DNA from: Microbacteriaceae bacterium
Lineage (GTDB): Bacteria > Actinomycetota > Actinomycetes > Actinomycetales > Microbacteriaceae
Length of the DNA: 64,000 nucleotides
Reading direction: 5' to 3'
Assembly: GCA_040513215.1 (NCBI GenBank)
Contig: JBEVDR010000033.1
Coordinates: 7,461 to 71,460, forward strand
Made by a program: the position numbers and the translations under genes. This document shows, piece by piece, positions 2,492 through 29,667 of this stretch. The notes under the pieces were generated by a model. The model did no database searches, was not told where the DNA came from, and saw only the letters and a list, made by a program, of their open reading frames with translations. How positions within the stretch are numbered: the stretch's first letter is position 1; each line of letters starts with the position of its first letter.

Positions 2492-3285
2492 TGCTGACCA
2501 TCTTCACCCTGGACGCGATCCCCGAGGTCGTCGCCGGCGACGACCTCGCCGGCATCATCGGGCACGCCGCCGACGGCATGCTGCAGGATGGCGACATCCT
2601 CGCCGTCACCTCGAAGATCGTGTCCAAGGCGGAGGGCCGTCAGGTGGCCGCCGCCGACCGGGAACAGGCGATCACCGAGCAGACCGTGCGGATCGTGGCC
2701 ACCAAGCAGCACGGCCACGGCGTCACCCGGATCGTGGAGAACCCGCTCGGCCTGGTGCTGGCCGCCGCCGGAGTCGATGCCAGCAACACCCCGGCCGGCA
2801 CCATCCTGCTGCTGCCGGAGGATCCGGATGCCTCGGCCCTGGCGCTCTGCGCCGCACTGCGGGACCGGTTCGGGGTGCGTCTCGGCGTGATCATCACCGA
2901 CACGCTCGGTCGTGCGTGGCGGCAGGGACAGACGGATGTCGCGATCGGCGCCGCCGGCGTGCGGGTAATCGACGACCTGCGCGGCACCAGCGACGCCGGT
3001 GGACGCGTACTCGAGGCCACCCTCGCCGCGGTGGCCGACGAGATCGCCGGCGCGGCAGAACTGGTCAAGGGCAAGGCCTCCGGCCGCCCGGTCGCGGTGG
3101 TGCGCGGACTCGGGCAGTACGTGGGGGAGCTCGGCCTGCCCGGCGCCCACGCGCTGATCCGACCGGCCGCCGACGACCTGTTCCGCCTGGGCAGCGACGA
3201 AGCGCGAGCCGAGGGCCACGCCGAGGGCTACGCGGAGGGCCTGCACGACGGCGCCGCCGCGGCACGCCGCCAGCCCGCAGACTGA
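2491..3285 (+). CDS. cofE: Coenzyme F420-0:L-glutamate ligase (single domain, no nitroreductase domain)
   Basis: Motifs [62 protein letters not shown] and [14 protein letters not shown]. Confidence 0.93.
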
Positions 3286-11736: not shown

Positions 11737-12330
11737 TCAGAACCACGCCGGTCGGTCGGCGACGAACTGCTCCGGCCGGATCAGCGGCTGCGCACGCGCC
11801 ACGGCGAGGTTGATCCTGGTGAGCAGCTCGGGGTTTGACACCCGGTAGTTGGTGAAGTCGGAGTCGCAGGCGTACACGCCGAGCGGCAGCGTCACCGCCT
11901 GGAAGAACCCGAACAGCGGCCGCAACTGGTGCTCGATGATGAGGGCGTGCCGGTCGCTGCCTCCGGTGGCGGCGAGCAGCACCGGCGTGTCGACGAGGTC
12001 GTACTGGCCGACGAAGTCGAACAGGTGCTTGAACAGGCCGCTGAACGAGGCACGATACACCGGGCTCGCGACCACGAGAAGGTCGGCCGTCTCGATGCGG
12101 CGCAGCTCCTCTTCGACCGATTCGGGCAGCTGCGTGCGGCTGATGGCCCCGGCGAGATCAGGGCCGATCCGTTCGAGCTCGACCAGGTGAGGGTCGATGG
12201 GGCGTTCCCTGGCGAGGCTGGCGATGATCTCGGTGACCAGCGCTGTCGTCTTCGAAGGGGACTGCAGGCTGCCCGAGACGCCCACCACAGAAAGCGGGCG
12301 GTCGAGGGTGCTGGTCGGTACGGATGCCAT
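11737..12330 (-). CDS. NAD(P)H-dependent FMN reductase (MsuE/SsuE-like)
   Basis: Motifs VSGSLQSPSKT, SPVYRASFSGLFKHLFD and ATGGSDRHALIIEHQLRPLF. Confidence 0.88.
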   Translation of the reverse strand: MASVPTSTLDRPLSVVGVSGSLQSPSKTTALVTEIIASLARERPIDPHLVELERIGPDLAGAISRTQLPESVEEELRRIETADLLVVASPVYRASFSGLFKHLFDFVGQYDLVDTPVLLAATGGSDRHALIIEHQLRPLFGFFQAVTLPLGVYACDSDFTNYRVSNPELLTRINLAVARAQPLIRPEQFVADRPAWF

Positions 12331-12568: not shown

Positions 12569-13531
12569 TCAGAGCGCTCGCAGCTTCTCCAGCAGTGGAC
12601 CGGCGGCGGTGTCGAGGAACTCCTGCTGGGTTTCGTCGCCGATCTGCACCAAGGCGATGTCGGTGAAGCCTGCGGTCACGAACGGCCGGAAGCTGTCGGC
12701 GATCTCGTCGAGGTCGGGGCCGCATGCGATGCTCGCCGCGACATCCTCTGGCCGCACGAAGGCGCTCGCCCCGGTGAACCCCGCCGGGGTCGGCAGGTCG
12801 GCATTCACCCGCCAGCCGCCGCCGAACCAGCGGAACTGGTCGTGAGCGCGGGCGATTGCGGCATCTTTGTCCCGGTCCCAGCAGATGGGAAGCTGCCCCA
12901 TCGACCGGGCCTGCGGATTCTGCTCGCGCCAGCCGTCGACCAGCGTCTTATCCGGCTGGGTTGCGATCACGTGGTCGCCGAGCGGGGCGAACATCGACAC
13001 GGATTTGTCGCCGGAGACGGCCACGGCGATCGGCACGCCCTCATCCGGAACATCCCAGATGCGGGCAGAGTCAACACGGAAGTACTCGCCCTGCCAGGTG
13101 ACCAGCTCACCGCCGTGCAGCGCGCGGATCACCGAGATCGCCTCGGCCAGCATGTTCTGGCGAACATCAACCGACGGCCAGCCCTCGCCGATGACATGCT
13201 CATTGAGGTTCTCACCGGATCCGAGGCCGAGGATGAAGCGACCGTCGCCCAGTAGCTGCAGGGTGGCAGCCTTCTGCGCCACCACCGCTGGGTGGTAGCG
13301 CATGGTCGGGCAGGTGATGTACGTCGCGATCTCCACCCGTTCGGTGGCGTGCGCGACCGCACCGAGCACCGACCAGGCGTATGGCGAGTGCCCCTGCGCG
13401 ACGAGCCAGGGGGAGTAGTGGTCGCTGCACACTTCGAAGTCGAAACCCACGCGCTCTGCCGCGATGGCGTAGCGCACGAGCTCCTTCGGGCCGCTCTGCT
13501 CGCTCATCAGGGTGTAGCCGAATCGTGTCAT
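12569..13531 (-). CDS. F420-dependent LLM-class oxidoreductase (TIGR03557-like)
   Basis: Motifs GYTLMSEQSGP, SDHYSPW, YHPAVVAQKAATL and LGLGSGENLNEH. Confidence 0.87.
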   Translation of the reverse strand: MTRFGYTLMSEQSGPKELVRYAIAAERVGFDFEVCSDHYSPWLVAQGHSPYAWSVLGAVAHATERVEIATYITCPTMRYHPAVVAQKAATLQLLGDGRFILGLGSGENLNEHVIGEGWPSVDVRQNMLAEAISVIRALHGGELVTWQGEYFRVDSARIWDVPDEGVPIAVAVSGDKSVSMFAPLGDHVIATQPDKTLVDGWREQNPQARSMGQLPICWDRDKDAAIARAHDQFRWFGGGWRVNADLPTPAGFTGASAFVRPEDVAASIACGPDLDEIADSFRPFVTAGFTDIALVQIGDETQQEFLDTAAGPLLEKLRAL

Positions 13532-14777: not shown

Positions 14778-15434
14778 ATGTCAGCCCGCTGGTCGCTCGT
14801 ACTCCCGGTGAAGGGAGCCAATGGCAAATCCCGGCTGACCCTGCCGGATCACCACCTGCGTTCTCCGCTCGCCGTCGCGTTCGCGCTGGACGCGCTCGAC
14901 GCGGTGCTCGGCGCCGCATCGGTCGGCCGCGTGATCGTGGTGACCTCGGATGCGGCGGTCAGTAGCGCGCTCCGCGAAACCAGGGCCGAGCTCGTGCCCG
15001 ACCCCGGCGAGGGGTTGAACGCCGCGATCCGCGCCGGCCTTGCGGTGCTCGCCCCCGCGGATCCCGCCGTGCGCGACGCTTCGTACTCCGCAGTGCTCGC
15101 GCCCTCGCAGCCCGCCGGCGTGCTGCTCGCCGATCTGCCCGCGCTCACCGCCGCAGACCTCGACGCCGCGCTCGCTACAGTGGCGACCCACCCGCTTGCG
15201 CTGGTGCCCGATGCCGACGGCACTGGGTCCACCCTGATCACCGCGCAGCGAGTCGGCGACCTGGTGCCCCGGTTCGGCGTGGGATCGAGGGCCGCCCACG
15301 AGAAGGCCGGTCACGTCCCGATCGAGCTGCCCGCGGCATCCGGTCTCCGCCGCGACGTCGACAGTGAGTCCGACCTGAACCAGGCGCTCGCCCTGGGCGT
15401 CGGCCGGCACACGAGAGCCGCGCTCGACCTCTAG
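14778..15434 (+). CDS. cofC: 2-phospho-L-lactate/PEP guanylyltransferase (CofC/FbiD)
   Basis: Motifs PVK...KSRL, GLNAA, ADLPAL, DGTGST, FGVGS..H and RRDVD. Confidence 0.9.
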   Translation: MSARWSLVLPVKGANGKSRLTLPDHHLRSPLAVAFALDALDAVLGAASVGRVIVVTSDAAVSSALRETRAELVPDPGEGLNAAIRAGLAVLAPADPAVRDASYSAVLAPSQPAGVLLADLPALTAADLDAALATVATHPLALVPDADGTGSTLITAQRVGDLVPRFGVGSRAAHEKAGHVPIELPAASGLRRDVDSESDLNQALALGVGRHTRAALDL

Positions 15435-15467: not shown

Positions 15468-16436
15468 TCAGTGGGCGCCGAGCCCCAGCTCCACGGCCGC
15501 CCTGACGATCGCGGCCGACTCCTCGAGTGTGGTCAGGTACAGCGGTCTCGCCGCCGCCCGCATCCCGGACGCCGCGAGATCGTCGACGACCGCGGCATCC
15601 GCGCTGTCCACCAGCCAGCCATCGAGCAGTCCGCCCGCAGACCGGGCTCCGTAGTGGCGCGCCACCGCATCCGCGCTCACCTGAACCCCGATCGCGGCCA
15701 GGCACTCGGCCGCCATCCCGCGTAGGGCGGCGCCGCCAATGATCGGTGACACGCCCACGACCGGCGCCGCGGTGCCGGCGAGCGCCGTCCGCATGCCCGG
15801 CACGCCGAGGATCGTCCCGATCGACACCACCGGGTTCGACGGGGCGAGCAGCACCACGTCCGCATCGGCGATCGCCGCGAGCACCTCCGGGGTGGGCTTT
15901 GCCGATTCCACCCCCACCTGCTCGAAGCCGAGCGCCGGGACGGCCGCCCGGGTCCGAACCCACCACTCCTCGAAGTGGATCAGCCCATCCGCGACCCGCA
16001 CGTGCGTCTCCACCGGCTGATCGCTCATCGGCAGCAGGGTCACGCCGAGCGGCCAGCGCGCGGCGAGCCGCTGGGTCGCCGCGGTGAGGCTCAGCCCGTC
16101 GCGCAGCAGGCTGGTGCGGGCCAGGTGTGTGCCGAGATCCAGGTCGCCGAGCGTGAACCAGGGCCAACCGAGCCCGTATGCCGCCAACTCCGCCGACACC
16201 CGTTCGCTCTCACCCGCGCGTCCCCAGCCGCGGTCGGTGTCGTTCACGCCGGCCAGCGCGTACATGATCGAGTCGAGGTCGGGGCAGACCCGCACCCCGG
16301 TCAGCCACAGGTCGTCGCCGGTGTTGACGACAACGCGGATGTCGGCATCCGGCATCGCGTGCCGCACGCCGCGCACGAACTTGGCGCCGCCGACGCCGCC
16401 GGCCAGCACAGTGATTCTGACGGGTCCAGCGATCAC
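15468..16436 (-). CDS. cofD: 2-phospho-L-lactate transferase (CofD/FbiA)
   Basis: Motifs LAGGVGGAKF, NTGDD, CPDLD, WFTLGDLDLGTH, LLPMSD, HFEEWWV and PSNPVVSIG. Confidence 0.95.
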   Translation of the reverse strand: MIAGPVRITVLAGGVGGAKFVRGVRHAMPDADIRVVVNTGDDLWLTGVRVCPDLDSIMYALAGVNDTDRGWGRAGESERVSAELAAYGLGWPWFTLGDLDLGTHLARTSLLRDGLSLTAATQRLAARWPLGVTLLPMSDQPVETHVRVADGLIHFEEWWVRTRAAVPALGFEQVGVESAKPTPEVLAAIADADVVLLAPSNPVVSIGTILGVPGMRTALAGTAAPVVGVSPIIGGAALRGMAAECLAAIGVQVSADAVARHYGARSAGGLLDGWLVDSADAAVVDDLAASGMRAAARPLYLTTLEESAAIVRAAVELGLGAH

Positions 16437-17230
16437 GAGTCCTCCTCGGGGGCGAATGCGATGACCGGTCGCCCGGTCCCGGGGTGCTGCAGCACGGTGG
16501 CCTGCACCCCGTACACGTCGTGGATGATCGGGGCGGTCAGCACCTCGCCGGGGGAGCCCGCGGCGACCACCCGTCCGTCGGCGAGTACGACGACGTGGTC
16601 GGCGTAGGTGGCGGCGAGGGTCAGGTCGTGCAGTGCAGCGACCACGGTCACCGAGTTCCGCGCCATCCGACGCAGCAGCGCCAGCGTCGACAATTGGGCG
16701 CGGATGTCGAGATGGTTCGTCGGCTCGTCGAGCAGCATCAGCTGAGGCTGCTGCGCGAGCGCCCGCGCCAGGTGCACCCTCTGCCGCTCACCGCCGGACA
16801 ACGAATCGAACAGCCGATCGGCGAAGCCATCCATCCCCACCGTGGCCAGCGCCTCCGTCACCACCGCGCCATCATCACCGGCGGATGCAGCGAGCATCGG
16901 CCGATGCGGAGTCCTGCCGAGCTCGACCGCGTCCCGCACACTCAGGCTGGACTCGGCGCTGAGCTCCTGCTCTACCACCGCAACCAGGCGCGCGCGGGCA
17001 CGCCGGCCGAGCTGCAGCAGGTCGTCGCGGTCGAACCGCACGCTGCCGGCCGACAGCGGCAGCAGCCCCGCCACCCCGCGCAACAGCGTGGTCTTGCCGG
17101 CACCGTTCGGACCGACGAGCGCGGTCACCGAACCTCCCGGTGCGGTCAGGTCGACGCCATCGATGATGCTGCGGCCGCCGAGGCTCATCCGCACCCCGCG
17201 CAGGGCAAGGCCGATCGAACCAGCGCTCAT
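16433..17230 (-). CDS. ABC transporter ATP-binding protein (putative Fo/F420-0 importer)
   Basis: Motifs GPNGAGKTT, LSGGERQR and LDEPTNHLD. Overlaps the cofD start. Confidence 0.85.
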   Translation of the reverse strand: MSAGSIGLALRGVRMSLGGRSIIDGVDLTAPGGSVTALVGPNGAGKTTLLRGVAGLLPLSAGSVRFDRDDLLQLGRRARARLVAVVEQELSAESSLSVRDAVELGRTPHRPMLAASAGDDGAVVTEALATVGMDGFADRLFDSLSGGERQRVHLARALAQQPQLMLLDEPTNHLDIRAQLSTLALLRRMARNSVTVVAALHDLTLAATYADHVVVLADGRVVAAGSPGEVLTAPIIHDVYGVQATVLQHPGTGRPVIAFAPEEDS

Positions 17231-18270
17231 CGAGTGCTCCGCCTCGCCAGCAGCGCCGCGAACACCGGAGCGCCCACGATTGCCGTGACGATGCCCACCG
17301 GCAACTCCCGCGGGTCGAACAGGGTGCGCGCCACGGTATCGGCCCAGATCAGCACGATCGCGCCGGTCAGCGCCACCAGCGGCAGCAGCAGCCGATGCCG
17401 TGCCCCGGTGAGCAACCGCACCGCGTGCGGCAGAACCAGTCCGATGAAGCCGATAGAGCCGCTCACCGACACCATCGCGCCGGTGAGCAGGGCGGTCACC
17501 GCCAGCAGCGTCCACCGGGTGGCCGCCACATTCACACCCAGGGCGGCCGCCGTGGTGTCGCCGAACGCGAACGCGTCGAGCAGCCGACCACTGAACAGCA
17601 CCGGCACGCCGATGACCAGCACCGCCGTGCCGGCGATCGCAACCGTGGTCCAGTCCGACCCGCTCAGCGAGCCGAGCAGCCAGTTCAGGATCTCACGGAA
17701 CGAATCGCCCTGCGCCGACCAGAAGATCACGAAGCTCGTCAGCGCTGCCGCGAGCGCCGACACGGCGACACCGGCGAGCACCGTGCGCGTCGGGGTGAGG
17801 ACGCCGGATGCGCCGGCCAGCAGCAGCGTAGCCAGCAGCGCGGCCAACGCCCCCACAAACGCGGCGATCGGCAGCAGCACGCCGAGCCCGAGCAGCAGCA
17901 CGCTGACCGCGCCAAGCGACGCCCCGGACGACAGGCCCAGCAGATACGGGTCGGCCAAAGGGTTGCGGGTGAGCGCTTGCATCACAGCCCCGCTCAGCGC
18001 CAGGCCCGCGCCCACCGCCGCCGCCGTGAGCACGCGCGGCAAGCGCAGCTCCCAGACGATCCCGTCGCGCAACACACTGAGCGGGCTGTCGCCCAGCCCG
18101 AGGTGGGCGGCCACACTCGCGAACACGTCGGCCGGGCGGATGTCGGCGGCGCCGAAGCAGATCGCGGCGACAATCGACGCCACGAGCAACGCGCTCAGCA
18201 GCACGCCCCAACCCCAGGGCGAGGCCCGGCGCCGGCCGGTGGCGGGCCTGTGCTGTGTCGTGTCCGTCAT
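17227..18270 (-). CDS. FecCD-type ABC permease (putative Fo/F420-0 importer)
   Basis: Motifs ELRLPRV, QALTRNPLADPYLLG, GSIGFIGL and ELPVG. In an operon with cofD. Confidence 0.85.
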   Translation of the reverse strand: MTDTTQHRPATGRRRASPWGWGVLLSALLVASIVAAICFGAADIRPADVFASVAAHLGLGDSPLSVLRDGIVWELRLPRVLTAAAVGAGLALSGAVMQALTRNPLADPYLLGLSSGASLGAVSVLLLGLGVLLPIAAFVGALAALLATLLLAGASGVLTPTRTVLAGVAVSALAAALTSFVIFWSAQGDSFREILNWLLGSLSGSDWTTVAIAGTAVLVIGVPVLFSGRLLDAFAFGDTTAAALGVNVAATRWTLLAVTALLTGAMVSVSGSIGFIGLVLPHAVRLLTGARHRLLLPLVALTGAIVLIWADTVARTLFDPRELPVGIVTAIVGAPVFAALLARRSTR

Positions 18271-18274
18271 CTGG

Positions 18275-19264
18275 TTAGCGGGCATCCAGCGCGGCCAGCT
18301 GGTCGAGGATCGAGGCCACCGCCTCCACATTCCGCACCCCGGCCTCACCGGCCGCGAACGGCACCGTGATGAACCGCCGCTCGGCCACCGCGTCCAGTTG
18401 CGCGGTCACCGGATTGGCGGTGAGCATCTCGATCTTCGACGCGGCCGTGTTCCAGCTCGCGTCCACCAGCACGATCACGTCGGGGTTGGCATCGATGATC
18501 GACTCCCAGCCGAGCGAGGCCCAGGTGTCGTTGACGTCGGCGGCCACGTTCGTGAGCCCTGCGGCATCCAGCATCATCTGGGGTGCGCCGATGCCCGCCC
18601 CGACATACGGGGTGTCCGTGCCCGAGGAGTACCAGAGCGCGGTCAGGCCGTCGGTCGAGGGCGACAGCGCTTCGAGCGCCCCCTGCTGCTCGGCCACCAG
18701 CTCCTCGGCCGCGTCTTCGGCGCCGAACACGGTGCCGGCCTCACGGATCTCGTCGAAGACCAGGTCGAAGGTGAGCTTCTCCGGCTTGTACCCGGGCTCC
18801 TTGCAGGCGGAGGGGGACACATAGCTGCCGATACCGAGCGATGCGAGAGCGTCCCGTTCGCCCGCGGTGTCGGACTTCAGGTTCGACTCCCAGCCGGCGT
18901 AGATGAAGTCGGGTTCGAGATCGAGCACCGCCTCCTGGGCGGGAGCGAAGTCACTGATCACCGGGATGTCGGCCGCCTCGACTGCCCACTGGTCGGGCAC
19001 TGGGCCGTCGGGGAAGGCCGTGCCGATGATCCGGTCGCCGAGCCCCAGGGCCAACAGCATCTCGGTCGTCGAGGACTTGATGGTGAGGATGCGCTCGGCG
19101 GGGCGCTCCACCGTCAGTTCGAAGCCGCAGTTGTCGATGGTCACCGGCACGGATGGGGTTGATGAGGTGGCCGGGCTCGAGGCTGGTGCCGTCGAGGCCG
19201 AACACCCGGTCAGGGCTACCGCGACGACCGCGAGAGAGAGCAGGGCATGGGGACGACGGGACAC
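18275..19264 (-). CDS. ABC substrate-binding lipoprotein, resembling the proposed F420-0 transporter family (TIGR03868-like)
   Basis: Lipobox LTGC; motifs DNCG, IKSSTTEMLLALG, AGWESN, SPSACK, PYVGAGIGAPQ and EAGVRN. First gene of the operon ending in cofD. Confidence 0.82.
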   Translation of the reverse strand: MSRRPHALLSLAVVAVALTGCSASTAPASSPATSSTPSVPVTIDNCGFELTVERPAERILTIKSSTTEMLLALGLGDRIIGTAFPDGPVPDQWAVEAADIPVISDFAPAQEAVLDLEPDFIYAGWESNLKSDTAGERDALASLGIGSYVSPSACKEPGYKPEKLTFDLVFDEIREAGTVFGAEDAAEELVAEQQGALEALSPSTDGLTALWYSSGTDTPYVGAGIGAPQMMLDAAGLTNVAADVNDTWASLGWESIIDANPDVIVLVDASWNTAASKIEMLTANPVTAQLDAVAERRFITVPFAAGEAGVRNVEAVASILDQLAALDAR

Positions 19265-19508
19265 AGGACTCCTTGTGGCTGGCTACGAATAGTCCGCGGG
19301 CTCAAGCTGCCGCGAACTCGAACCAGCTGCTTCAGCGCGAAGTCAGCGCACCGTGCCATACCGGCGCGGGGGTCGAGGTAAGGGATACGTTACTCGGTAT
19401 GTGCATGATCCGCGGTAGCGCAGGGCTTGTAGAGCCGCGTCGCCACGTCTAGGTTTACGCCAACGTCATATGCCGAACTGACTGAGAAATCTTTACGGCG
19501 CATGATGA

Positions 19509-19534
19509 CAGAACTAACAACGAGGTTTGTTCTG
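19509..19534. promoter_or_regulatory. Imperfect inverted repeat CAGAACTAAC-N6-GTTTGTTCTG; candidate operator for the pyrimidine operon
   Basis: 9 of 10 arm positions are complementary; lies in the AT-rich divergent intergenic region. Confidence 0.45.
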
Positions 19535-19591
19535 AAACAAGCATCTGGCACGGTGTGACTGTTTGCCGGGGGCCCTGAGCGCGGAGGCAAC

Positions 19592-20440
19592 ATGACGGTT
19601 GTACGAGCAGCGATCACCCAGACCACCTGGACCGGCGACAAGGAGTCGATGATCCAGAAGCACGAGCAGTTCGCGCGCGACGCGGCCGCCCAGGGTGCTC
19701 AAGTCATCTGCTTCCAGGAACTGTTCTACGGACCGTACTTCGGTATCACCGAAGACCCCAAGTACTACGAGTATGCCGAGCCGGCAGACGGGCCGATCGT
19801 GCAGCGATTCGCGAAACTCGCCAAGGAACTGGGCATGGTCATGGTGCTGCCGATCTACGAGGAGGACCAGCCAGGCGTCTACTACAACACCGCGGTGGTC
19901 GTCGACTCCGACGGCAGCATCCTCGGCAAGTACCGCAAGCACCACATCCCCAACCTCGACAAGTTCTGGGAGAAGTTCTACTTCCGGCCGGGCAACCTCG
20001 GCTACCCGGTGTTCAAGACAGCCGTCGGTCCAATCGGCGTGTACATCTGTTACGACCGGCATTTCCCAGAGGGATGGCGCGAACTCGGGCTGAATGGCGC
20101 CCAGATCGTCTTCAACCCGAATGCCACCAAGCCAGGGCTCTCGAACCGGCTCTGGCAGCTCGAGCAGCCGGCCGCGGCGGCCGCGAACGGCTATTTCGTG
20201 GCAGCCCCGAACCGCGTCGGAACCGAGGACAACGAGTACGGCGACCTCGCCGTGAATTTCTACGGTTCGAGCCAGTTCGTCGATCCGCAGGGCAACCTCG
20301 TGGGCGAGTACGGCAGCGACAGTGACGAGGAAGTGGTCATCCGCGACCTCGACCTCGACATGATCCGGAAGGTGCGCAACAACTGGCAGTTCTATCGCGA
20401 CCGCCGCCCCGAGTCCTACACGTCGATCCCGAAGCCGTAA
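19592..20440 (+). CDS. Nitrilase-family carbon-nitrogen hydrolase, likely beta-ureidopropionase
   Basis: Glu-Lys-Cys triad motifs FQELF, YRKHHIP and ICYDRHFPEG; also WEKFYFRPGN and FYRDRRP. Adjacent to dihydropyrimidinase. Confidence 0.85.
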   Translation: MTVVRAAITQTTWTGDKESMIQKHEQFARDAAAQGAQVICFQELFYGPYFGITEDPKYYEYAEPADGPIVQRFAKLAKELGMVMVLPIYEEDQPGVYYNTAVVVDSDGSILGKYRKHHIPNLDKFWEKFYFRPGNLGYPVFKTAVGPIGVYICYDRHFPEGWRELGLNGAQIVFNPNATKPGLSNRLWQLEQPAAAAANGYFVAAPNRVGTEDNEYGDLAVNFYGSSQFVDPQGNLVGEYGSDSDEEVVIRDLDLDMIRKVRNNWQFYRDRRPESYTSIPKP

Positions 20441-20457
20441 AGAAGCCGGATAGGGGA

Positions 20458-21897
20458 ATGACCGTGAAGACTCTTATCAAGAACGGCACCGTCGTCAACG
20501 CCACCGGAACTGCAGCCGCCGACATCCTGATCGACGGCGGCACCATCGCCGCCGTGCTGGCGCCCGGATCCACCCTGCTCGGCTTCGACGTGGAGAACAA
20601 CGTCGACACCGTGATCGACGCCAACGGCAAGTACGTGATTCCCGGCGGCATCGACGCGCACACCCACATGCAGCTGCCGTTCGGCGGCACCGAGGCATCC
20701 GACACCTTCGAGACCGGCACCAGGGCGGCCGCCCACGGCGGAACCACCTCGATCATCGACTTCGCCGTGCAGGTCTACGGCCAGCGCCTCGAAGACGGCC
20801 TCGCGGCGTGGCACGAGAAAGCCACCGGCAACTGCGCGATCGACTACGGGTTCCACCAGATCGTCGGGGATGTCACCCCCGACTCGCTCCAGGCGCTGAA
20901 GCGCCTGCCCGACGAGGGCATCAGCAGTTACAAGATGTTCATGGCCTACCCGGGAGTGTTCTACTCGGATGACGCGCAGGTCCTGAAGGCGATGCAGGTG
21001 GCGCGCGAGGCCGGCATGCTGACGATGATGCACGCCGAGAACGGCCCGGCGATCGACGTGCTCGCCCAGCAGCTGGTCGAACAGGGCAACACCGACCCGT
21101 ACTACCACGGCATCGCCCGCGCCTGGGAGCTCGAGGAAGAGGCGACGCACCGCGCGATCATGCTCGCGAAGCTCACCGGAGCGCCGCTGTACGTCGTGCA
21201 CGTGTCGGCGAAGCAGGCAGTTGAACAGATCGCCTGGGCGCGGAACAACGGGCAGAACGTCTTCGGTGAGACCTGTCCGCAGTACCTCTACCTGTCGCTG
21301 GAAGACCAGCTCGGGGCATCAAGTGACGAGTGGGGCAAGTTCGAGGGCGCCAAGTGGGTGTGCTCGACGCCCCTGCGGAGCCGCGCCGAGGGTCACCAGG
21401 ATTCGATGTGGCAGGCGCTTCGCACGAACGACCTGCAGACGGTGTCGACCGACCACTGCCCCTTCTGCATGAAGGACCAGAAGGAGCTCGGACTCGGCGA
21501 CTTCCGGAAGATCCCGAACGGCATCGGCGGGATCGAGCATCGGATGGACCTGATGTACCAGGGCGTCGTCACCGGGGAGATCACCCTGGAACGCTGGGTG
21601 GAGCTCACCAGCACAACACCTGCCCGCATGTTCGGCATGTACGGCAAGAAGGGCGTCATCCAGCCCGGCGCCGACGCCGACATCGTGATCTACGACCCGA
21701 ACGGGCACACCTCGATCGGGATCGGCAAGACCCACCACATGAACATGGACTACTCCGCCTGGGAGGGCTACGAGATCGACGGTCACGTCGACACCGTGCT
21801 GTCCCGCGGCCGCATCATCGTCGACGACAACCAGTACGTCGGACGCAAGGGCGACGGTGAATTCATCAAACGTGGCCTCAACCAGTACCTGATCTAG
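20458..21897 (+). CDS. hydA: Dihydropyrimidinase
   Basis: Motifs PGGIDAHTH, YKMFMAY, MMHAEN, YVVHVS, ETCPQY, STDHCPF and KIPNG. Confidence 0.92.
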   Translation: MTVKTLIKNGTVVNATGTAAADILIDGGTIAAVLAPGSTLLGFDVENNVDTVIDANGKYVIPGGIDAHTHMQLPFGGTEASDTFETGTRAAAHGGTTSIIDFAVQVYGQRLEDGLAAWHEKATGNCAIDYGFHQIVGDVTPDSLQALKRLPDEGISSYKMFMAYPGVFYSDDAQVLKAMQVAREAGMLTMMHAENGPAIDVLAQQLVEQGNTDPYYHGIARAWELEEEATHRAIMLAKLTGAPLYVVHVSAKQAVEQIAWARNNGQNVFGETCPQYLYLSLEDQLGASSDEWGKFEGAKWVCSTPLRSRAEGHQDSMWQALRTNDLQTVSTDHCPFCMKDQKELGLGDFRKIPNGIGGIEHRMDLMYQGVVTGEITLERWVELTSTTPARMFGMYGKKGVIQPGADADIVIYDPNGHTSIGIGKTHHMNMDYSAWEGYEIDGHVDTVLSRGRIIVDDNQYVGRKGDGEFIKRGLNQYLI

Positions 21898-21905
21898 GGA
21901 GAGCC

Positions 21906-22922
21906 ATGGATTTCGGAGTAGTACTGCAGACCAACCCGCCGGCCTCACGCACCGTGCACTTGGCGAAACTCGCCGAGCAGTACGGGTTCACTCACGCCTG
22001 GACCTTCGACTCTCACCTGCTCTGGCAGGAGCCGTACGTGATCTACAGCCAGATCCTGGCCGAGACCACGCGCATCACGGTCGGGCCCATGGTCACCAAC
22101 CCGGCCACCCGCGACTGGACGGTCACCGCGTCGCTGTACGCCACCCTCAACGACATGTACGGCAACCGCACGATCTGCGGCATCGGCCGCGGAGACTCCG
22201 CAGTGCGGGTCACCGGCGGCGAGCCCACGACGCTGAAGACACTGCGCGAATCGATCCACATCATCCGCGAGCTGGCGAACAGCAGACCGGTCGAGTACCA
22301 CGGGTCGACCCTCCAGTTCCCCTGGAGCCGCGGCTCACAGCTGGACATCTGGGTGGCGGCCTACGGACCACTGGCGCTGAAGCTGGCCGGCGAGGTGGGG
22401 GACGGCTTCATCCTGCAACTGGCCGACCTCGACATCGCGAGCTGGATGATCAAGACGGTTCGGGATGCCGCCCAGGCGGCGGGCCGCGACCCGATGTCCG
22501 TGAAATTCTGCGTGGCCGCCCCGATGTACGTCGGCGACGACCTGCCGCACATGCGCGATCAGACACGCTGGTTCGGCGGCATGGTGGGCAACCACGTCGC
22601 CGACATCGTGGCCAAGTACGGAGAGCACGGCGCCGTTCCCGAGGCGCTCACCGACTACATCCGAGGCCGGCAGGACTACGACTACAACGAACACGGCCAG
22701 GCCGGGAACGTGCACACCCAGTTCGTGCCAGACGAGATCGTCGACCGGTTCTGCGTGCTCGGCACCGCCGACCAGCACATCGAGAAGCTGAAGGCGCTGA
22801 AAGACTTGGGCGTCGACCACTTCGCCGGATACCTGCAGCATGACAATAAAGAGGAGACCCTGCGGGTCTACGGCGAGACCGTGATCCCGACGCTCAGAGA
22901 GCACATCGTGGCCAAGGCATGA
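21906..22922 (+). CDS. F420-dependent LLM-class oxidoreductase (TIGR03842-like)
   Basis: Motifs MDFGVVLQT, WTFDSHLLWQEP, VTNPATRD, GIGRGDSA and YDYNEHG. Confidence 0.82.
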   Translation: MDFGVVLQTNPPASRTVHLAKLAEQYGFTHAWTFDSHLLWQEPYVIYSQILAETTRITVGPMVTNPATRDWTVTASLYATLNDMYGNRTICGIGRGDSAVRVTGGEPTTLKTLRESIHIIRELANSRPVEYHGSTLQFPWSRGSQLDIWVAAYGPLALKLAGEVGDGFILQLADLDIASWMIKTVRDAAQAAGRDPMSVKFCVAAPMYVGDDLPHMRDQTRWFGGMVGNHVADIVAKYGEHGAVPEALTDYIRGRQDYDYNEHGQAGNVHTQFVPDEIVDRFCVLGTADQHIEKLKALKDLGVDHFAGYLQHDNKEETLRVYGETVIPTLREHIVAKA

Positions 22923-23851
22923 CAGACGTTCAACCGGCATTCGCGCCCATCCCGCCGGCGCTCAGACGGCGGAGATCACCCAAGCGGATACTCTCCGCGT
23001 GGGGGTTCGGAGCGCTCGGCGTCCTCTCGCTCGTCGCGGTCTGGGAACTGTACAAGCTGCTCGGCCCCGAGGACGGGGTGGTGATCGGCGACATCCGCGT
23101 GCTGCCACGCACCAGCGACCTCGCCATGCCGCACGTCTGGGACATGCTGACGCGACTGGCCGAACCAGTCACCCGGTCGGCGGATGCGCTCCCGCTCTGG
23201 GTCGTGGTGGCGCAGGCCGCCCTGGTCACCCTCGGCATCGCCGCGGTCGGCTGGCTGGTCGCGGTCGTGGTCGGCATCGGGCTGGCACTCGTGATGCAAC
23301 GCTGGCGGATCGCCGAGTGGGGACTGCTGCCCTGGATCGTGCTCAGCCAAACCATCCCGCTCATCGCGTTCGCGCCGGTGGTGCGCAGCTGGGGATCCCG
23401 AGTGGAGATCGGCGCGTTTGAATGGCAGGACTGGATGTCGGTGGCGCTGATCGCGTCCTACCTCGCGTTCTTCCCCGTGGCCGTCGGCGCTCTGAAGGGC
23501 CTGCAGTCACCGGACGCCATCCACGTCGACCTGATGCACAGCTACGCCACCGGTTGGTGGCGGAGCCTCATCTGGCTGCGCTTCCCGGCGGCGGTGCCCT
23601 ACCTGCTGCCCGCGCTCCGGCTTGCCGCCGCCAATGCCGTCATCGGCGCGGTGGTCGCCGAGGTCTCGACAGGCCTGCAGGGCGGCATCGGCCGCATCCT
23701 CATCCAATACGCCGGACAGGCCAGCGGCGACCCCGAGAAGGCGTGGGGTCCGATCTTCGGATCGATCGTGCTCGGCCTCGTCGCCGCCGGATCGATCGCC
23801 ATCCTCGGCGCAATACTCAAGAACTACCGACGGGTAGAGGTCAACACGTGA
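22919..23851 (+). CDS. ABC transporter permease (NitT/TauT family)
   Basis: TM helices, SQTIPLIAFAP, EAA-like loop and GAVVAE. Confidence 0.88.
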   Translation: MTDVQPAFAPIPPALRRRRSPKRILSAWGFGALGVLSLVAVWELYKLLGPEDGVVIGDIRVLPRTSDLAMPHVWDMLTRLAEPVTRSADALPLWVVVAQAALVTLGIAAVGWLVAVVVGIGLALVMQRWRIAEWGLLPWIVLSQTIPLIAFAPVVRSWGSRVEIGAFEWQDWMSVALIASYLAFFPVAVGALKGLQSPDAIHVDLMHSYATGWWRSLIWLRFPAAVPYLLPALRLAAANAVIGAVVAEVSTGLQGGIGRILIQYAGQASGDPEKAWGPIFGSIVLGLVAAGSIAILGAILKNYRRVEVNT

Positions 23852-24654
23852 CAAGCGAAGCGGTAACCATTACGGATGTCGACAAGACGTTCGAGACCCG
23901 GTCAGGCCAGGTATCGGCGCTGCAGGGCATCAACCTCACCGTGGCGGCCGGAGAGTTCGTCTCGTTGATCGGCCCGTCCGGCTGCGGCAAATCGACGCTG
24001 ATGCGGCTGATTGCCGATCTGGACACGCCCACCAGCGGCACGGTGCAGGTGTTCGGCAAGAGCGCCAGTCATGCCAGGCGCGACCAGGATTACGGCATCG
24101 CGTTCCAGCAGGCGGGTCTGCTGCCGTGGCGCACCGTGGCCGGCAACATCGAACTGCCGCTGGCGCTGCACGGGATCGGCTCCCGGCAGCGCAAAGAGCG
24201 CGTCGCCGAGCTGATCGACCTGGTCGGGCTCAGCGAGTTCGCCGACCGCTTCCCCGACCAGTTGTCGGGCGGAATGCAGCAGCGCGTGGCGATCGCCCGA
24301 GCTCTCGCCGAGAAGCCGGCGCTGCTGCTGATGGACGAGCCATTCGGTGCTCTGGACGAGATGACCAGGGAACGGATGCAGACCGAACTCGTGCGAATCT
24401 GCGCCGAGACGAAGGCGGCCGTAGTGTTCGTAACCCACTCCATCCCGGAAGCGGCCTTTCTCTCCGACCGGGTGGTCGTCATGTCGCCACGCCCGGGACG
24501 GGTCCAGGAGATCATCCCGATGCGCCTCGGGGCGGCCCGCACCGAGGGGCTGCGTGAAGAGCACGCCTTCTTCGACATGGTCACCGCGGTGCGCGAGGCG
24601 CTGCACCAGGGATCGCCGGTCCCAACCGGCCCGCGCGGGATGGAGACCCGCTGA
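23848..24654 (+). CDS. ABC transporter ATP-binding protein (NitT/TauT family)
   Basis: Motifs GPSGCGKST, LSGGMQQR, LMDEPFGALD and VTHSI. GTGA overlap at 23848. Confidence 0.92.
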   Translation: MTSEAVTITDVDKTFETRSGQVSALQGINLTVAAGEFVSLIGPSGCGKSTLMRLIADLDTPTSGTVQVFGKSASHARRDQDYGIAFQQAGLLPWRTVAGNIELPLALHGIGSRQRKERVAELIDLVGLSEFADRFPDQLSGGMQQRVAIARALAEKPALLLMDEPFGALDEMTRERMQTELVRICAETKAAVVFVTHSIPEAAFLSDRVVVMSPRPGRVQEIIPMRLGAARTEGLREEHAFFDMVTAVREALHQGSPVPTGPRGMETR

Positions 24655-25427
24655 TGCGCGCCCTCAGCCCGCGCGCCGAGAACACGACGAGGATCATCGC
24701 CCCGGTCGCGGCCGGTGCGCTGGTGCTCGGCGCGTGGCAGCTATTGGTGACCGTCGGCGGTGTCGACGACTACCTGCTGCCCAGCCCGGCGTCGATCATC
24801 GACCAGATCGTCGAGTTCTGGCCCTCGATGGTGAGCGCGGCCGTGACCACCGGGCTGAACGCCCTGCTCGGGCTGATCATCGGATCGATGCTCGGCATCC
24901 TGTTCGCCCTGCTCGCCTCGCTCACCCGGGTGATCGACTTCATGAGTGCACCGGTGGTCGCTGCGCTCGCCGTGATCCCGATCGTGGCGCTCGCGCCGGT
25001 GCTGAATACGATGTTCGGCGCCGACTCGCAGATTGGCCGACAGGCCATCGCCGGCCTCGCCTCGTTCGTGCCGGTGTTCATCAACACGCTGCGCGGACTT
25101 CGGCAGACGCTGCCGGTGCACCGCGACCTGATGCGCTCCTACGCCGCCAGCCAGACGCAGGTCATGCGCACGGTCACTCTGCCCACCGCGACGCCGTTCG
25201 TCTTCACCGGCATCCGTATCGCGTCATCGCTCGCGGTGATCTCCGCGCTGGTCGCCGAGTACTTCGGCGGTCCGCGCGGCGGGCTCGGCGGCCTGATCTC
25301 GACCTCGGCGGCGTCGAGCGCGTACCCGCGCGCCTGGGCGTACGTGGTCGCGGGCATCGTGCTCGGGCTCGCCTTCTACCTCGCCACCCTCGCCCTCGAA
25401 CGCCTCGTGATGAGGCGGCGAAGCTGA
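24654..25427 (+). CDS. ABC transporter permease (NitT/TauT family)
   Basis: Motifs LLPSP, IPIVALAP and ALVAEYFGG. Confidence 0.88.
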   Translation: MRALSPRAENTTRIIAPVAAGALVLGAWQLLVTVGGVDDYLLPSPASIIDQIVEFWPSMVSAAVTTGLNALLGLIIGSMLGILFALLASLTRVIDFMSAPVVAALAVIPIVALAPVLNTMFGADSQIGRQAIAGLASFVPVFINTLRGLRQTLPVHRDLMRSYAASQTQVMRTVTLPTATPFVFTGIRIASSLAVISALVAEYFGGPRGGLGGLISTSAASSAYPRAWAYVVAGIVLGLAFYLATLALERLVMRRRS

Positions 25428-25525
25428 CCCACCAACGTCCCCGCGTGCCGGGCGAGGCTACCGCACCAACTGCTCCACCTCGCCAGCACTGCTCCACCTA
25501 AACAGCACAGACAGGATGGACTGAC

Positions 25526-26674
25526 ATGAAACGCAGCACACGTCGCATAGCGACATTCGGCGCCGTGGGACTCACCGCGGCGCTCCTCCTCGCGGCCTGT
25601 TCGCCCACCGCCGACGAACCGACCACCGAGGGCACGAACGGTGAACTCACCGAGGTGAAGCTGCAACTGCAGTGGCTGCCGCAGGGCCAGTTCGCCGGCT
25701 ACTTCGCCGCCCAGGAGGAGGGGTTCTTCGAGGAGGAGGGGCTGGACGTGGAGATCATCCCGTCCGGCGGCGACATCGTGCCGCAGGACGCCCTCGCCAA
25801 CGGTGATGTCGACTACGCCATCGCCTGGGTGCCCAAGGTGCTCGGCTCGATCGAGGCTGGCGCGAACGTGACCAACATCGCGCAGATCTTCCAGAAGTCC
25901 GGCACCCTGCAGGTGTCCTGGGCCGACTCCGGGATCGAGTCGGTCGCCGACTTCGAGGGCAGGAAGATCGGCTCCTGGGGTTTCGGCAACGAGTGGGAGA
26001 TCTTTGCGGCGATGGCCGCGGAGGGCCTGGACGCCACCACCGTGGAGATCATCACGCAGGACTTCAACATGAATGCCTTCCTGCAGGGTGACATCGACGC
26101 GGCGCAGGCGATGACCTACAACGAGTACGCCCAACTGTTGGAGACGCCGAACCCCGACACGGGGGAGCTGTACCAGCCCGAGGACTTCAACGTGATCAGC
26201 TACCAGGACACCGTCGGCGCGATGCTGCAGGACGCGATCTGGGCTGACACCGAGCGGCTGGACAGCGACGAGGAGTACCAGGACACCACGGTGGCCCTGC
26301 TGAAGGCCGTCATCAAGGGCTGGGCGTATGCCGCCCAGAATCCTGAGGAAGCGGCCGACATCACCATCGCGGCCGGATCCGGCTGGGGTCCGAGCCACGA
26401 GCTGTGGATGGTCAACGAGACCAACAAGCTGATCTGGCCGTCGCCGGACGGCATCGGCGTGATCGATCAGGCGGCGTGGGATGCCACGGTGGCGGCTGCC
26501 CTCAGCGCGGTGAACGAGACGGGCGCGAGCCTGATCACCGAGGAACCGCCCGCCACGGCGTTCACGAACGATTACATCCAGCAGGCGCTTGACGCGCTTG
26601 AGGGTGAGGACATCGACCTGACCGGGGAGAACTTCGCCCCGATCGAGGTCACCCTCGAAGAGGGCGGCAACTAA
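25526..26674 (+). CDS. ABC substrate-binding lipoprotein (NMT1/THI5-like; probable pyrimidine ligand)
   Basis: Lipobox LAAC; motifs LQLQWLPQGQFAGY, AQIFQKSG and AMTYNE. Confidence 0.87.
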   Translation: MKRSTRRIATFGAVGLTAALLLAACSPTADEPTTEGTNGELTEVKLQLQWLPQGQFAGYFAAQEEGFFEEEGLDVEIIPSGGDIVPQDALANGDVDYAIAWVPKVLGSIEAGANVTNIAQIFQKSGTLQVSWADSGIESVADFEGRKIGSWGFGNEWEIFAAMAAEGLDATTVEIITQDFNMNAFLQGDIDAAQAMTYNEYAQLLETPNPDTGELYQPEDFNVISYQDTVGAMLQDAIWADTERLDSDEEYQDTTVALLKAVIKGWAYAAQNPEEAADITIAAGSGWGPSHELWMVNETNKLIWPSPDGIGVIDQAAWDATVAAALSAVNETGASLITEEPPATAFTNDYIQQALDALEGEDIDLTGENFAPIEVTLEEGGN

Positions 26675-26682
26675 CCAACACT

Positions 26683-26718
26683 TGCCCCCGGCGAGACCGT
26701 ATGGTGTTGCCGGGGGCA
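26683..26718 (+). terminator. Strong hairpin after the binding-protein gene (terminator or mRNA stabiliser)
   Basis: TGCCCCCGGCGAGACC-GTAT-GGTGTTGCCGGGGGCA, 15 of 16 positions paired. No U-tract. Confidence 0.6.
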
Positions 26719-26786
26719 CCGGCGCCCCCACCGCGCCGCCCGGAACCCCGCAGGGGAGACCGACTGACCGCACGACTGGAGTGTTC

Positions 26787-28130
26787 ATGACCGAATTCGA
26801 CTTCTCGTCCGTGAGCCGCGAGGATGGCGAACGCACCCTCGACCTCGACCGCTCGCACGTGTTCCATTCCTGGTCGGCGCAGGGCTCGTTGCGCCCGATG
26901 GCGATCGCCGGAGGCAAGGGCTCCGTGGTCTGGGACTTCGACGGCAAGGATTACCTTGACTTCTCGAGCCAGCTCGTCAACACGAACATCGGCCACCAGC
27001 ATCCGGCGGTCATCGACGCCATCAAGCGGCAGGCTGACGTGCTGGCGACCGTGGGGCCCGCTCACGCCAACCGCGCCCGCGGCGAGGCCGCCAGCCGCAT
27101 CCTCGACAAGCTCGGCGGCAACTTCAGCAAGATCTTCTTCACCAACGGTGGCGCCGATGCCAATGAGAACGCGATGCGGATGGCGCGTCTCACCACCGGC
27201 CGCGACAAGGTGCTCAGCATGTACCGCAGCTACCACGGCACCACCGGTGCCGCGATTGTCGCCACCGGCGACTGGCGTCGGGTGCCGAACGAGTATGCGC
27301 GCGGCCACGTGCACTTCTTCGGCCCGTTCCCGTACCGGTCCGAGTTCTGGTCCGTCTCGCCGGCGCAAGAGAGCGAGCGGGCGCTGCACCACCTGGAACG
27401 GGTGATCCAGGCGGAGGGCGCCGATTCGATCGCGGCGATCCTGATCGAGACGATCCCCGGCACCGCCGGCGTGATCGTGCCGCCGCCCGGATACCTGCCA
27501 GGGGTGCGGGAGCTCGCCAACAAATACGGCATCGTGCTCATCCTCGACGAGGTAATGGTCGGCTTCGGCCGAACCGGGGAGTGGTTCGCCTTCCACGCGT
27601 TCGATGTGGCACCCGACCTGGTCACCTTCGCCAAGGGCGTGAACTCGGGCTATGTGCCGGTCGGAGGTGTGGCGATCTCGCCGGCCATTGCCGACGTGTT
27701 CACCAACCGGGTGTTCCCCGGTGGGCTCACCTATTCCGGACATCCGCTTGCCATGGCCTCGATCATCGGCTCGATCGACGCGATGCAGGACGAGGGCATC
27801 ATCGAGAACGCCCGGATGATCGGTGAGGAGCACCTGGGGCCGGGGCTCGCCGCGCTGATGGACGCGCATCCGCTGATCGGGGAGGTGCGCGGCAGCGGCG
27901 TGTTCTGGGCGCTCGATCTGGTCGACGACCTCGACACGCGCGCACCGGTGTCTGGGGCAGTGATCGGCTGGCTGAAGAAGGAGCTGCTGTCGCTCGGGTT
28001 GCTGCCGTTCACGGCGGACAACCGGATCCATGTCGTTCCGCCGTGCGTGGTCACCCCGAACGAGGTGGCGAGAGCGCTCGACATCTACGACCAGGCGTTC
28101 ACGACCGTGGAGAACTCAATGATCCGTTAG
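26787..28130 (+). CDS. Class III PLP aminotransferase, likely beta-alanine/omega-amino acid transaminase
   Basis: Motifs YLDFSSQLVNTNIGH, FTNGGADANE, SYHG, LILDEVMVGFGRTG and FAKG. SD GGAG before ATG 26787. Confidence 0.87.
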   Translation: MTEFDFSSVSREDGERTLDLDRSHVFHSWSAQGSLRPMAIAGGKGSVVWDFDGKDYLDFSSQLVNTNIGHQHPAVIDAIKRQADVLATVGPAHANRARGEAASRILDKLGGNFSKIFFTNGGADANENAMRMARLTTGRDKVLSMYRSYHGTTGAAIVATGDWRRVPNEYARGHVHFFGPFPYRSEFWSVSPAQESERALHHLERVIQAEGADSIAAILIETIPGTAGVIVPPPGYLPGVRELANKYGIVLILDEVMVGFGRTGEWFAFHAFDVAPDLVTFAKGVNSGYVPVGGVAISPAIADVFTNRVFPGGLTYSGHPLAMASIIGSIDAMQDEGIIENARMIGEEHLGPGLAALMDAHPLIGEVRGSGVFWALDLVDDLDTRAPVSGAVIGWLKKELLSLGLLPFTADNRIHVVPPCVVTPNEVARALDIYDQAFTTVENSMIR

Positions 28131-28141
28131 AATTGATCGTT

Positions 28142-28708
28142 ATGCCTGCGTTCAAGAACACTCCTTATACCTTGGCGGTGCACGACATCATGCACCGTCC
28201 GGGGCTGATGCGTGAGCACCACCTGTCGATCCCGGCGCCCGAGCAGCTCGGTGACGGAATGGTGTCGGTTAAAGAGGGCGCGAAGGTCGAGCTCGAGGTG
28301 CGCCTGGAGGGCCTGCACGACGGCATCCTGGTCTCCACCGAGGTCGACACCGTGGCCACCGGACAGTGCGTGCGCTGCCTGATTGACATCGAACTGCCTG
28401 TCCAAGTCGAATTCCAAGAGCTTTTCGCGTATTCTTTCGACGAAGCTTTTGACTACACGGTTCACGATGACCACGTGGATCTTGAACCGGTAGTCAGGGA
28501 TGCGGTAGTGCTGTCACTGCCGTTCCAGCCGGTCTGCCGGCCGGACTGCCCAGGACTTGACCCGGAAACGGGGGAGCGCCTGGCAGATAATCCGGACAGG
28601 AAACCCCGCGATGTGCTTGACCCGAGGTGGTCTGCGCTCGAAGGCTTTCAGGCAGCCGCATCCGAAGACGAAGGCGCTGGAAACAGCGCCGATAGAGAGA
28701 AGAGATAA
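28142..28708 (+). CDS. YceD/DUF177 family protein
   Basis: Motifs CVRCL, DLEPVVRDAVVL and DPRW. Precedes rpmF. Confidence 0.9.
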   Translation: MPAFKNTPYTLAVHDIMHRPGLMREHHLSIPAPEQLGDGMVSVKEGAKVELEVRLEGLHDGILVSTEVDTVATGQCVRCLIDIELPVQVEFQELFAYSFDEAFDYTVHDDHVDLEPVVRDAVVLSLPFQPVCRPDCPGLDPETGERLADNPDRKPRDVLDPRWSALEGFQAAASEDEGAGNSADREKR

Positions 28709-28711
28709 GTA

Positions 28712-28915
28712 ATGGCCGTTCCGAAGCGGAAGCAGTCACGCTCCAACACGCACTCGCGCCGGTCGCAGTGGAAGGCCACGCCCGTGGCGCTGGTGAAGAC
28801 CATCGAAAACGGCAAGGTCACCTACAGCCTCCCGCACCGCGCCAAGGTCGTTGAAGACTCCGCAGGCACCGCCCTGTTCATGGAGTACAAGGGCCGCAAG
28901 GTCGCTGACGTCTAA
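28712..28915 (+). CDS. rpmF: 50S ribosomal protein L32 (cysteine-free form)
   Basis: Starts [22 protein letters not shown]. Confidence 0.95.
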
Positions 28916-28956
28916 TCCGACGCCACCTCACATCATCGTCGAATCGGCCCGCGCCT

Positions 28957-29667
28957 GTGTCCTCGTCTTCTAAGCCGGGGGCCAGCCGGGCCGATTTGTT
29001 GACTGCGCTGCAGCTGGACATCGACCCGCCGCTGCTCGAGACCGCGCTGACGCATCGTTCGTTCGCGTACGAGAACGGCGGCGTGACACACAACGAGCGC
29101 CTGGAGTTTCTCGGCGACTCGATTCTCGGCCAGGCGGTCACGGTGATGCTGTACCGCGAGAACCCGACGCTCGATGAGGGAGACCTTGCCAAGCGCCGGG
29201 CCAGCCTCGTCTCGAGCGTCGCCCTCGCCGAAGTCGCTCGGTCGATCAACCTCGGCGAGCACATCCGGCTGGGGCGCGGGGAAGAGCTCACCGGCGGCCG
29301 CGACAAGTCGTCGATCCTTGCCGACACCGTCGAGGCGATCATCGGTGCCGCCTATCTTGACCGCGGACCGGATGAGGCAACGGCACTCGTGCTACGGCTG
29401 ATCAGGCCGTTGCTGTCGAGCCCGGACCGATTCGGTGCCGCCATGGACCCGAAGACCAGCCTGCAGGAACTCGCTGCGCGGCTTGGTCGCGGGATTCCGA
29501 GTTACCGGGTCACGAACACCGGACCCGACCACTCGAAGATCTTCCACGCCGAGGTTCTGCTCGGCGATGACGCGATCGCCGGCGGTGATGGCACCAGCAA
29601 GAAGCAGGCCGAGATGGCTGCCGCGCTCGACGCGTGGACCCTGCTTCAGCAGACCGTCACGAGCTGA
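28957..29667 (+). CDS. rnc: Ribonuclease III
   Basis: Motifs ALTHRS and NERLEFLGD; dsRBD with DPKTSLQE and GPDH. Confidence 0.96.
   Translation: MSSSSKPGASRADLLTALQLDIDPPLLETALTHRSFAYENGGVTHNERLEFLGDSILGQAVTVMLYRENPTLDEGDLAKRRASLVSSVALAEVARSINLGEHIRLGRGEELTGGRDKSSILADTVEAIIGAAYLDRGPDEATALVLRLIRPLLSSPDRFGAAMDPKTSLQELAARLGRGIPSYRVTNTGPDHSKIFHAEVLLGDDAIAGGDGTSKKQAEMAAALDAWTLLQQTVTS

Follow-up and report, generated by a model that had tools for sequence, protein, structure and literature searches.

In a window of 64,000 nucleotides from a Microbacteriaceae bacterium (assembly GCA_040513215.1, contig JBEVDR010000033.1), an eight-gene operon was identified whose products would import uracil and thymine and degrade them by the reductive route. 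Within this pathway the initial reduction would be carried out with reduced coenzyme F420 (F420H2) by a luciferase-like monooxygenase (LLM)-class protein of the family TIGR03842, and we estimate the probability of this reading at about 0.78. The original prediction had taken the LLM as a replacement for PreTA, the usual first enzyme. The gene content of the operon agreed with it, and so did the linkage of the LLM to the hydrolase genes, the absence of PreA, the mutual exclusion of LLM and PreA-like genes in Acidobacteriota and the association of the LLM with the F420 biosynthesis gene cofD. At the level of sequence these observations make the replacement a strong inference rather than a demonstration.

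All eight genes were found on the + strand between positions 19592 and 28130 by a scan of the window for open reading frames (ORFs) and Pfam and other family models (Table 1). The nitrilase, the dihydropyrimidinase, the LLM, the four-part importer and the aminotransferase of the original prediction were each confirmed in place, and the family assignments likewise upheld its statement that the LLM is the sole oxidoreductase of the operon. The intergenic gaps measured −4 to 17 bp, with a single exception of 98 bp 5′ of the binding-protein gene, and because they are so short the eight genes are considered one operon. The true start of the ATP-binding cassette (ABC) ATPase gene is the GTG at 23848, which overlaps the stop codon of the permease gene within the sequence GTGA; a longer ORF from 23422 was rejected as the ATPase gene. 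A promoter and terminator scan of positions 19000–29000 gave no signal above chance, and the next gene 3′ of the operon is an unrelated yceD-like gene.

The proposed pathway may be depicted as follows: Uracil or thymine would be imported by the ABC system of the operon, and the LLM would produce dihydrouracil or dihydrothymine by reducing the C5=C6 bond, with F420H2 as the hydride donor. F420H2, bound as in the F420 enzyme Mer, would pass its C5 hydride to C6 of the pyrimidine, and C5 would be protonated by a conserved His, Tyr or Asn-held water. The dihydropyrimidinase would thereafter open the ring, the CN-hydrolase would convert N-carbamoyl-beta-alanine to beta-alanine (or beta-aminoisobutyrate), CO2 and ammonia, and the aminotransferase would take off the second nitrogen.

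The own assembly is a metagenome-assembled genome of 2.57 Mb from an actinobacterium with high G+C, and no PreA was found in it (best score 29 bits). A single DHO_dh-family gene was present, and no RutA was detected over the cut-off in this genome. Since little can be concluded from absence in an incomplete genome, 301 Actinomycetes genomes were sampled as well, and none of them contained a PreA/PydA over the cut-off (best 141 versus 335 bits). All known variants of PydA, whether NAD(P)H-dependent or ferredoxin-dependent (PydAc), are homologous DHO_dh proteins (PMC7332683), so the LLM would be a non-homologous replacement. PydA/PreA consists of a flavin mononucleotide (FMN)-binding DHO_dh domain (PF01180) with iron-sulfur domains, whereas the LLM is without these and its fold is unrelated; the hydride donor is NAD(P)H or ferredoxin for the PydA-type enzymes and presumably F420H2 for the LLM. 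What the LLM has in common with PydA, PreT/PreA and PydAc is the proposed reaction, the place in the pathway, the position beside dihydropyrimidinase and the complementary distribution, and the relation would accordingly be one of functional analogy and not of family membership.

Among the 301 Actinomycetes genomes, the LLM was present in 75 and a dihydropyrimidinase over the cut-off in 74, and the two occurred together in 70, almost always within 3.5 kb of each other. Forty neighbourhoods, drawn from across the families of Actinomycetes, were fetched, and the trio of CN-hydrolase, dihydropyrimidinase and LLM was found together in 39 of them. An orthologue of the aminotransferase (at least 48% identical, tblastn) was found in 13. 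The LLM therefore belongs with the two ring-processing hydrolases rather than with the beta-alanine steps that end the pathway. An ABC importer was present in about 11 of the 40 neighbourhoods. Other genes came and went: an aldehyde dehydrogenase between dihydropyrimidinase and LLM (n = 11), MocR-type regulators (n = 9) and an NCS1 cytosine/uracil-type permease (n = 6), all of which fit pyrimidine breakdown.

The same neighbourhoods bear on the possibility that the LLM acts last and reduces malonic or methylmalonic semialdehyde with F420H2, while another enzyme performs the first step. Within the extended Pyd pathway its counterpart would be the NAD(P)H-dependent reductase. The operon does encode an aminotransferase from which the semialdehyde would arise, and the reaction found most often among characterised F420 LLMs is carbonyl/alcohol redox (Adf, Fgd, hydroxymycolate dehydrogenase); some of these enzymes were among the fold matches described below. 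We nevertheless regard this as very improbable, since the LLM was kept with the hydrolases in the 39 neighbourhoods whereas an aminotransferase of any kind was found within 10 kb in about half of the 40, and since many clusters already have an aldehyde dehydrogenase for the semialdehyde. Neither would a semialdehyde reductase explain the mutual exclusion of the LLM and PreA-like genes.

Outside the class, 80 loci were collected from Thermoleophilia, Acidimicrobiia, Rubrobacter, Chloroflexota including Dormibacteria, Acidobacteriota and Binatota. The LLM was accompanied by a dihydropyrimidinase in 55, by a CN-hydrolase in 47 and by an NCS1 permease in 35 of these loci, and many of the remaining contigs end short. 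The gene order around the LLM varied between phyla and lineages, and a linkage that survives such rearrangement argues for a shared function. A divergent member of TIGR03842 (P0153, 43% identical) was encoded on a metagenome contig (L058:1646-5609) beside a 446-residue LLM, an isochorismatase-family protein and an amidase. This locus had no adjoining dihydropyrimidinase and may represent a different, Rut-like pyrimidine context.

An anti-correlation with preT/preA, proposed as a check in the original prediction, was evident in the Acidobacteriota. In a sample of 201 genomes, 59 contained a dihydropyrimidinase over the cut-off, and these were divided into 9 with the LLM only, 27 with a PreA-like gene only, none with both and 23 with neither (Fisher p = 0.0026, with the reservation that genomes which share ancestry do not count as independent). 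The 27 include one unpublished genome (G329); leaving it out gives 58 and 26 and does not alter the conclusion. The PreA-like gene was usually located a few kb from the dihydropyrimidinase gene. When only dihydropyrimidinases of at least 598 bits were considered (n = 35), a line set after the scores had been seen and hence a post hoc split, 9 genomes had the LLM, 25 a PreA-like gene and 1 neither. The nine LLM genomes carried at least two sequence types of the LLM, scoring about 525 bits and about 405–433 bits. CofD was present in all nine of them and in none of the 16 PreA-like genomes tested. In the Chloroflexota sample (n = 141), each of the 24 LLM genomes contained a dihydropyrimidinase, mostly adjacent to the LLM, and the anti-correlation stood in 22 of the 24, which were without a PreA-like gene. 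Two further Acidobacteriota genomes (G383 and G431) contained PreA-like genes of about 470 bits with one in-frame TGA each and no dihydropyrimidinase; the TGA may encode selenocysteine or mark a broken gene.

The dihydropyrimidinase scores also bear on whether the LLM reduces another heterocycle, such as a 5-substituted pyrimidine, a hydantoin precursor or a purine-derived ring, in an operon not mainly devoted to uracil and thymine. The dihydropyrimidinase model TIGR02033 covers HyuA-type enzymes and D-hydantoinases as well (an E. coli control passes the model), the CN-hydrolase is as near to N-carbamoylputrescine amidase as to beta-ureidopropionase, and the nearest solved relative of the aminotransferase acts on taurine. 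The nearest published idea concerns Chloroflexota, in which an F420 LLM was proposed to reduce yanthine (PMC12507026). In the Acidobacteriota, however, the dihydropyrimidinases scored alike whether they accompany the LLM or a PreA-like gene (all at least 598 bits), and the NCS1 permease, the class III aminotransferase and the aldehyde dehydrogenase fit the beta-alanine branch. The uric-acid set SsnA, YgeW, YgeY and YgeX was not seen in the annotated neighbourhoods, although these families were not queried directly. On balance another heterocycle is an unlikely substrate.

The LLM is a single protein of 338 residues, 97% identical to its counterpart in Salinibacterium sp. ZJ450 of the same family, Microbacteriaceae. 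Its only Pfam match was PF00296, and neither iron-sulfur nor flavin adenine dinucleotide (FAD) domains were recognised. The family TIGR03842 was reportedly defined by Selengut and Haft in 2010, and it is already named, without a function, by NCBI and other databases. The remark in the original prediction that the gene context is not new was therefore justified. An AlphaFold model of the LLM (pLDDT 92.5, pTM 0.91) predicts a luciferase-like (beta/alpha)8 TIM barrel that would be nearest to the F420-using members. The top 18 Foldseek matches were to Mer, Adf, Fgd1 and FGD2, all F420 enzymes, with the FMN luciferases appearing later, and the best match was Mer (8qpl, template-modelling score 0.80). 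Homology thus points to F420 as the likely cofactor.

Mer (PDB 8qpl, 1z69) is also the closest solved relative in sequence, with about 27–30% identity (E 5e-24). The Val that forms the cis-peptide backstop after beta3 of Mer is kept in the LLM family as the invariant Val63, and Asp96 of Mer as the invariant Asp97. On the Mer model TIGR03555, however, the LLM scored 129 bits against an equivalog cut-off of 349, and the context of Mer is one-carbon metabolism whereas that of the LLM is pyrimidine catabolism. The catalytic residue of Mer is Glu6 at the end of beta1, and in jMer the E6Q variant keeps 0.4% of kcat (PMC11094777). Position 178 of the deposited Mer sequence was counted as Asn, at odds with the Gln178 named in the Mer paper, and this residue was left out of the comparison. 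The corresponding residue in the LLM is Val6, and in 42 aligned members drawn from all phyla sampled it was V, T, S, C or A and never Glu, which argues that the substrate of TIGR03842 is not a methylene-pterin. Invariant across the family were D35, S36, T64, N65, P66, R69, G94 to S98, R101, Y153, Q171 and D174, together with a family-specific segment at 221–263 (R221, W222, F223, N229, H230, D233, R255, Y258, Y260 and H263) that aligned only poorly with Mer. Judged by their position after predicted strands, the invariant residues would lie on the catalytic face, and they fit a specific substrate pocket unlike that of Mer. Cys283 was considered as a proton donor like that of dihydropyrimidine dehydrogenase (DPD) and dropped, for it precedes strand 8 and lies on the far side of the barrel.

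The window also carries genes for F420 supply. The importer genes of 'F420-0' type (TIGR03868/03869/03873) and cofD stand head-to-head with the pyrimidine operon and are divergently transcribed from it, with cofC beyond. No Fo synthase (cofH/fbiC) was found in the own assembly, and the same held for three complete Microbacteriaceae genomes with the LLM and a dihydropyrimidinase (G149, G170 and G240). The retention of cofC and cofD makes Fo a more likely import than F420-0, and the pyrimidine catabolism of this lineage may depend on a scavenged cofactor.

The LLM might alternatively reduce uracil with FMN, or directly with NAD(P)H, instead of F420. The cofactor is assigned here by homology, NCBI recognises F420-type LLMs that have reverted to FMN (TIGR03885), and the own assembly is without the Fo synthase. 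Against this, the closest relatives of the LLM in both sequence and fold are all F420 enzymes, cofD followed the LLM in the Acidobacteriota (9/9 versus 0/16 PreA-like genomes), and cofC, cofD, cofE and the deazaflavin importer are all encoded near the operon in the window. A change of cofactor is therefore regarded as highly unlikely. The window additionally encodes two F420-class LLMs of the Fgd-like family TIGR03557 and an MsuE-type FMN reductase (Table 1).

The assignments of the remaining operon genes were compared with solved structures. The nearest to the CN-hydrolase were the plant N-carbamoylputrescine amidase (190 bits) and the beta-ureidopropionases of Drosophila (187 bits) and human (177 bits), and the protein scored below the AguB family cut-off; a specificity as beta-ureidopropionase is plausible from the gene context. 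The aminotransferase was nearest to taurine:2-oxoglutarate aminotransferase (6jix, 370 bits). Taurine and beta-alanine are close analogues, which makes a role in beta-alanine metabolism plausible, and from its gene context the enzyme probably acts on beta-alanine or beta-aminoisobutyrate. The binding protein gave weak matches to models of taurine/sulfonate binding proteins, and we infer uracil and thymine as the ligands of the importer.

Several observations weigh against an F420H2-dependent uracil/thymine reductase in this operon. The own genome is only 82.7% complete, and taken alone the lack of PreA there is weak evidence. A complete Fgd or Fno for the regeneration of F420H2 was not found in the own assembly; two strong Fgd fragments were located at contig ends outside the window (G000:C207:2-181 and G000:C105:3-131), and the genome probably has an Fgd gene that was split in the assembly. 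A few proteins over the TIGR03842 cut-off were found in other contexts (L030 and P0153). The anti-correlation failed in two of the 24 Chloroflexota LLM genomes (G584 and G593), which also carry a PreA-like gene on another contig. No other sampled genome departed from the mutual exclusion, and the PreA-like genes of these two may serve a purine pathway. Among genomes with a TIGR02033 match, 31 in the Chloroflexota as well as the 23 in the Acidobacteriota contained neither enzyme. HyuA and PydA-like enzymes also serve the reductive uric-acid pathway (PMC12507026), and together with the HyuA-type breadth of TIGR02033 this may explain both the genomes with neither enzyme and the two exceptions.

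A full-text literature search found no paper that assigns uracil or thymine reduction to the TIGR03842 family. The described reaction most like the one proposed comes from the mureidomycins, where knockout of a putative F420/FMN oxidoreductase abolished reduction of the uracil ring at C5-C6 (PMC10714638). The proteins concerned, SSGG-03002 and NpsU of uridyl-peptide antibiotic clusters, differ in that they perform antibiotic tailoring on a nucleoside-peptide, and an in vitro assay failed (PMC10714638); the likeness to the LLM is one of described reaction, and their fold family is not stated there. The extended reductive Pyd pathway (PydA-E), in the account of Yin et al. 2019 given in PMC12507026, likewise clusters dihydropyrimidinase, a carbamoyl-amidase and a class III aminotransferase, and includes an aldehyde-handling enzyme as do many relatives of the LLM cluster. 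As far as that account goes, the operon described here differs by its replaced first enzyme and its NMT1-type ABC importer, and in the relatives of the LLM cluster the semialdehyde is probably oxidised by the aldehyde dehydrogenase and not reduced.

Table 1. Features of the pyrimidine operon, of F420-related genes in the window and of the two PreA-like genes that co-occur with the LLM. Positions are those of the window unless a genome and contig are given. The models for the cofC, cofD and importer block were TIGR03552, TIGR01819, TIGR03873, TIGR03869 and TIGR03868.
Feature	Position	Strand	Basis or remark
CN-hydrolase, beta-ureidopropionase-like, proposed step 3	19592-20440	+	PF00795, 227 bits
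Dihydropyrimidinase, proposed step 2 (ring opening)	20458-21897	+	TIGR02033 equivalog, 558 bits vs cut-off 393
LLM-class F420-type oxidoreductase, proposed step 1	21906-22922	+	TIGR03842, 588 bits vs cut-off 295, full length
ABC permease 1	22919-23851	+	PF00528; 4-bp overlap with LLM stop
ABC ATP-binding subunit	23848-24654	+	PF00005, 121 bits
ABC permease 2	24654-25427	+	PF00528, 62 bits
NMT1/THI5-like substrate-binding protein of importer	25526-26674	+	PF09084, 136 bits
Class III aminotransferase	26682-28130	+	NF004718, 712 bits; true start may be later
cofC	14778-15434	+	Family model over cut-off
cofD	15468-16436	-	Family model over cut-off
Putative deazaflavin importer ATPase	16433-17515	-	355 bits, just under cut-off 372
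Putative deazaflavin importer permease	17227-18348	-	Family model over cut-off
Putative deazaflavin importer binding protein	18275-19264	-	Family model over cut-off
cofE	2491-3285		
F420-class LLM (Fgd-like)	1487-2491	+	TIGR03557; below Fgd equivalog cut-off
F420-class LLM (Fgd-like)	12569-13531	-	TIGR03557; below Fgd equivalog cut-off
MsuE-type FMN reductase	11737-12330	-	
PreA-like gene, G584	C8:33596-34792		Chloroflexota; LLM beside dihydropyrimidinase on other contig
PreA-like gene, G593	C65:7598-8641		Chloroflexota; LLM beside dihydropyrimidinase on other contig

TIGR03842 is thus likely to represent a new class of dihydropyrimidine dehydrogenase, which would be single-subunit, iron-sulfur-free and F420H2-dependent, and which would be the normal first enzyme in Actinomycetota and in F420-making members of several other phyla, with the Salinibacterium-like lineage also reliant on scavenged deazaflavin. 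The pathway is known and the first enzyme proposed for it is new; the exchange of PydA for the LLM would recur across several phyla and has apparently been undescribed in print so far. If true, a gap in a textbook pathway would be filled for a whole bacterial class, in which about a quarter of the sampled species have the trio and none has PydA, and automatic annotation would be corrected for thousands of unnamed genes in genomes apparently unable to start pyrimidine breakdown. The luciferase-like F420 enzymes would gain a new type of reaction, the reduction of the C=C bond of an aromatic pyrimidine, and an iron-sulfur-free uracil/thymine reductase could serve biocatalysis. In aerobic bacteria of soil and water, coenzyme F420 would then take part in the core catabolism of nitrogen and nucleotides.

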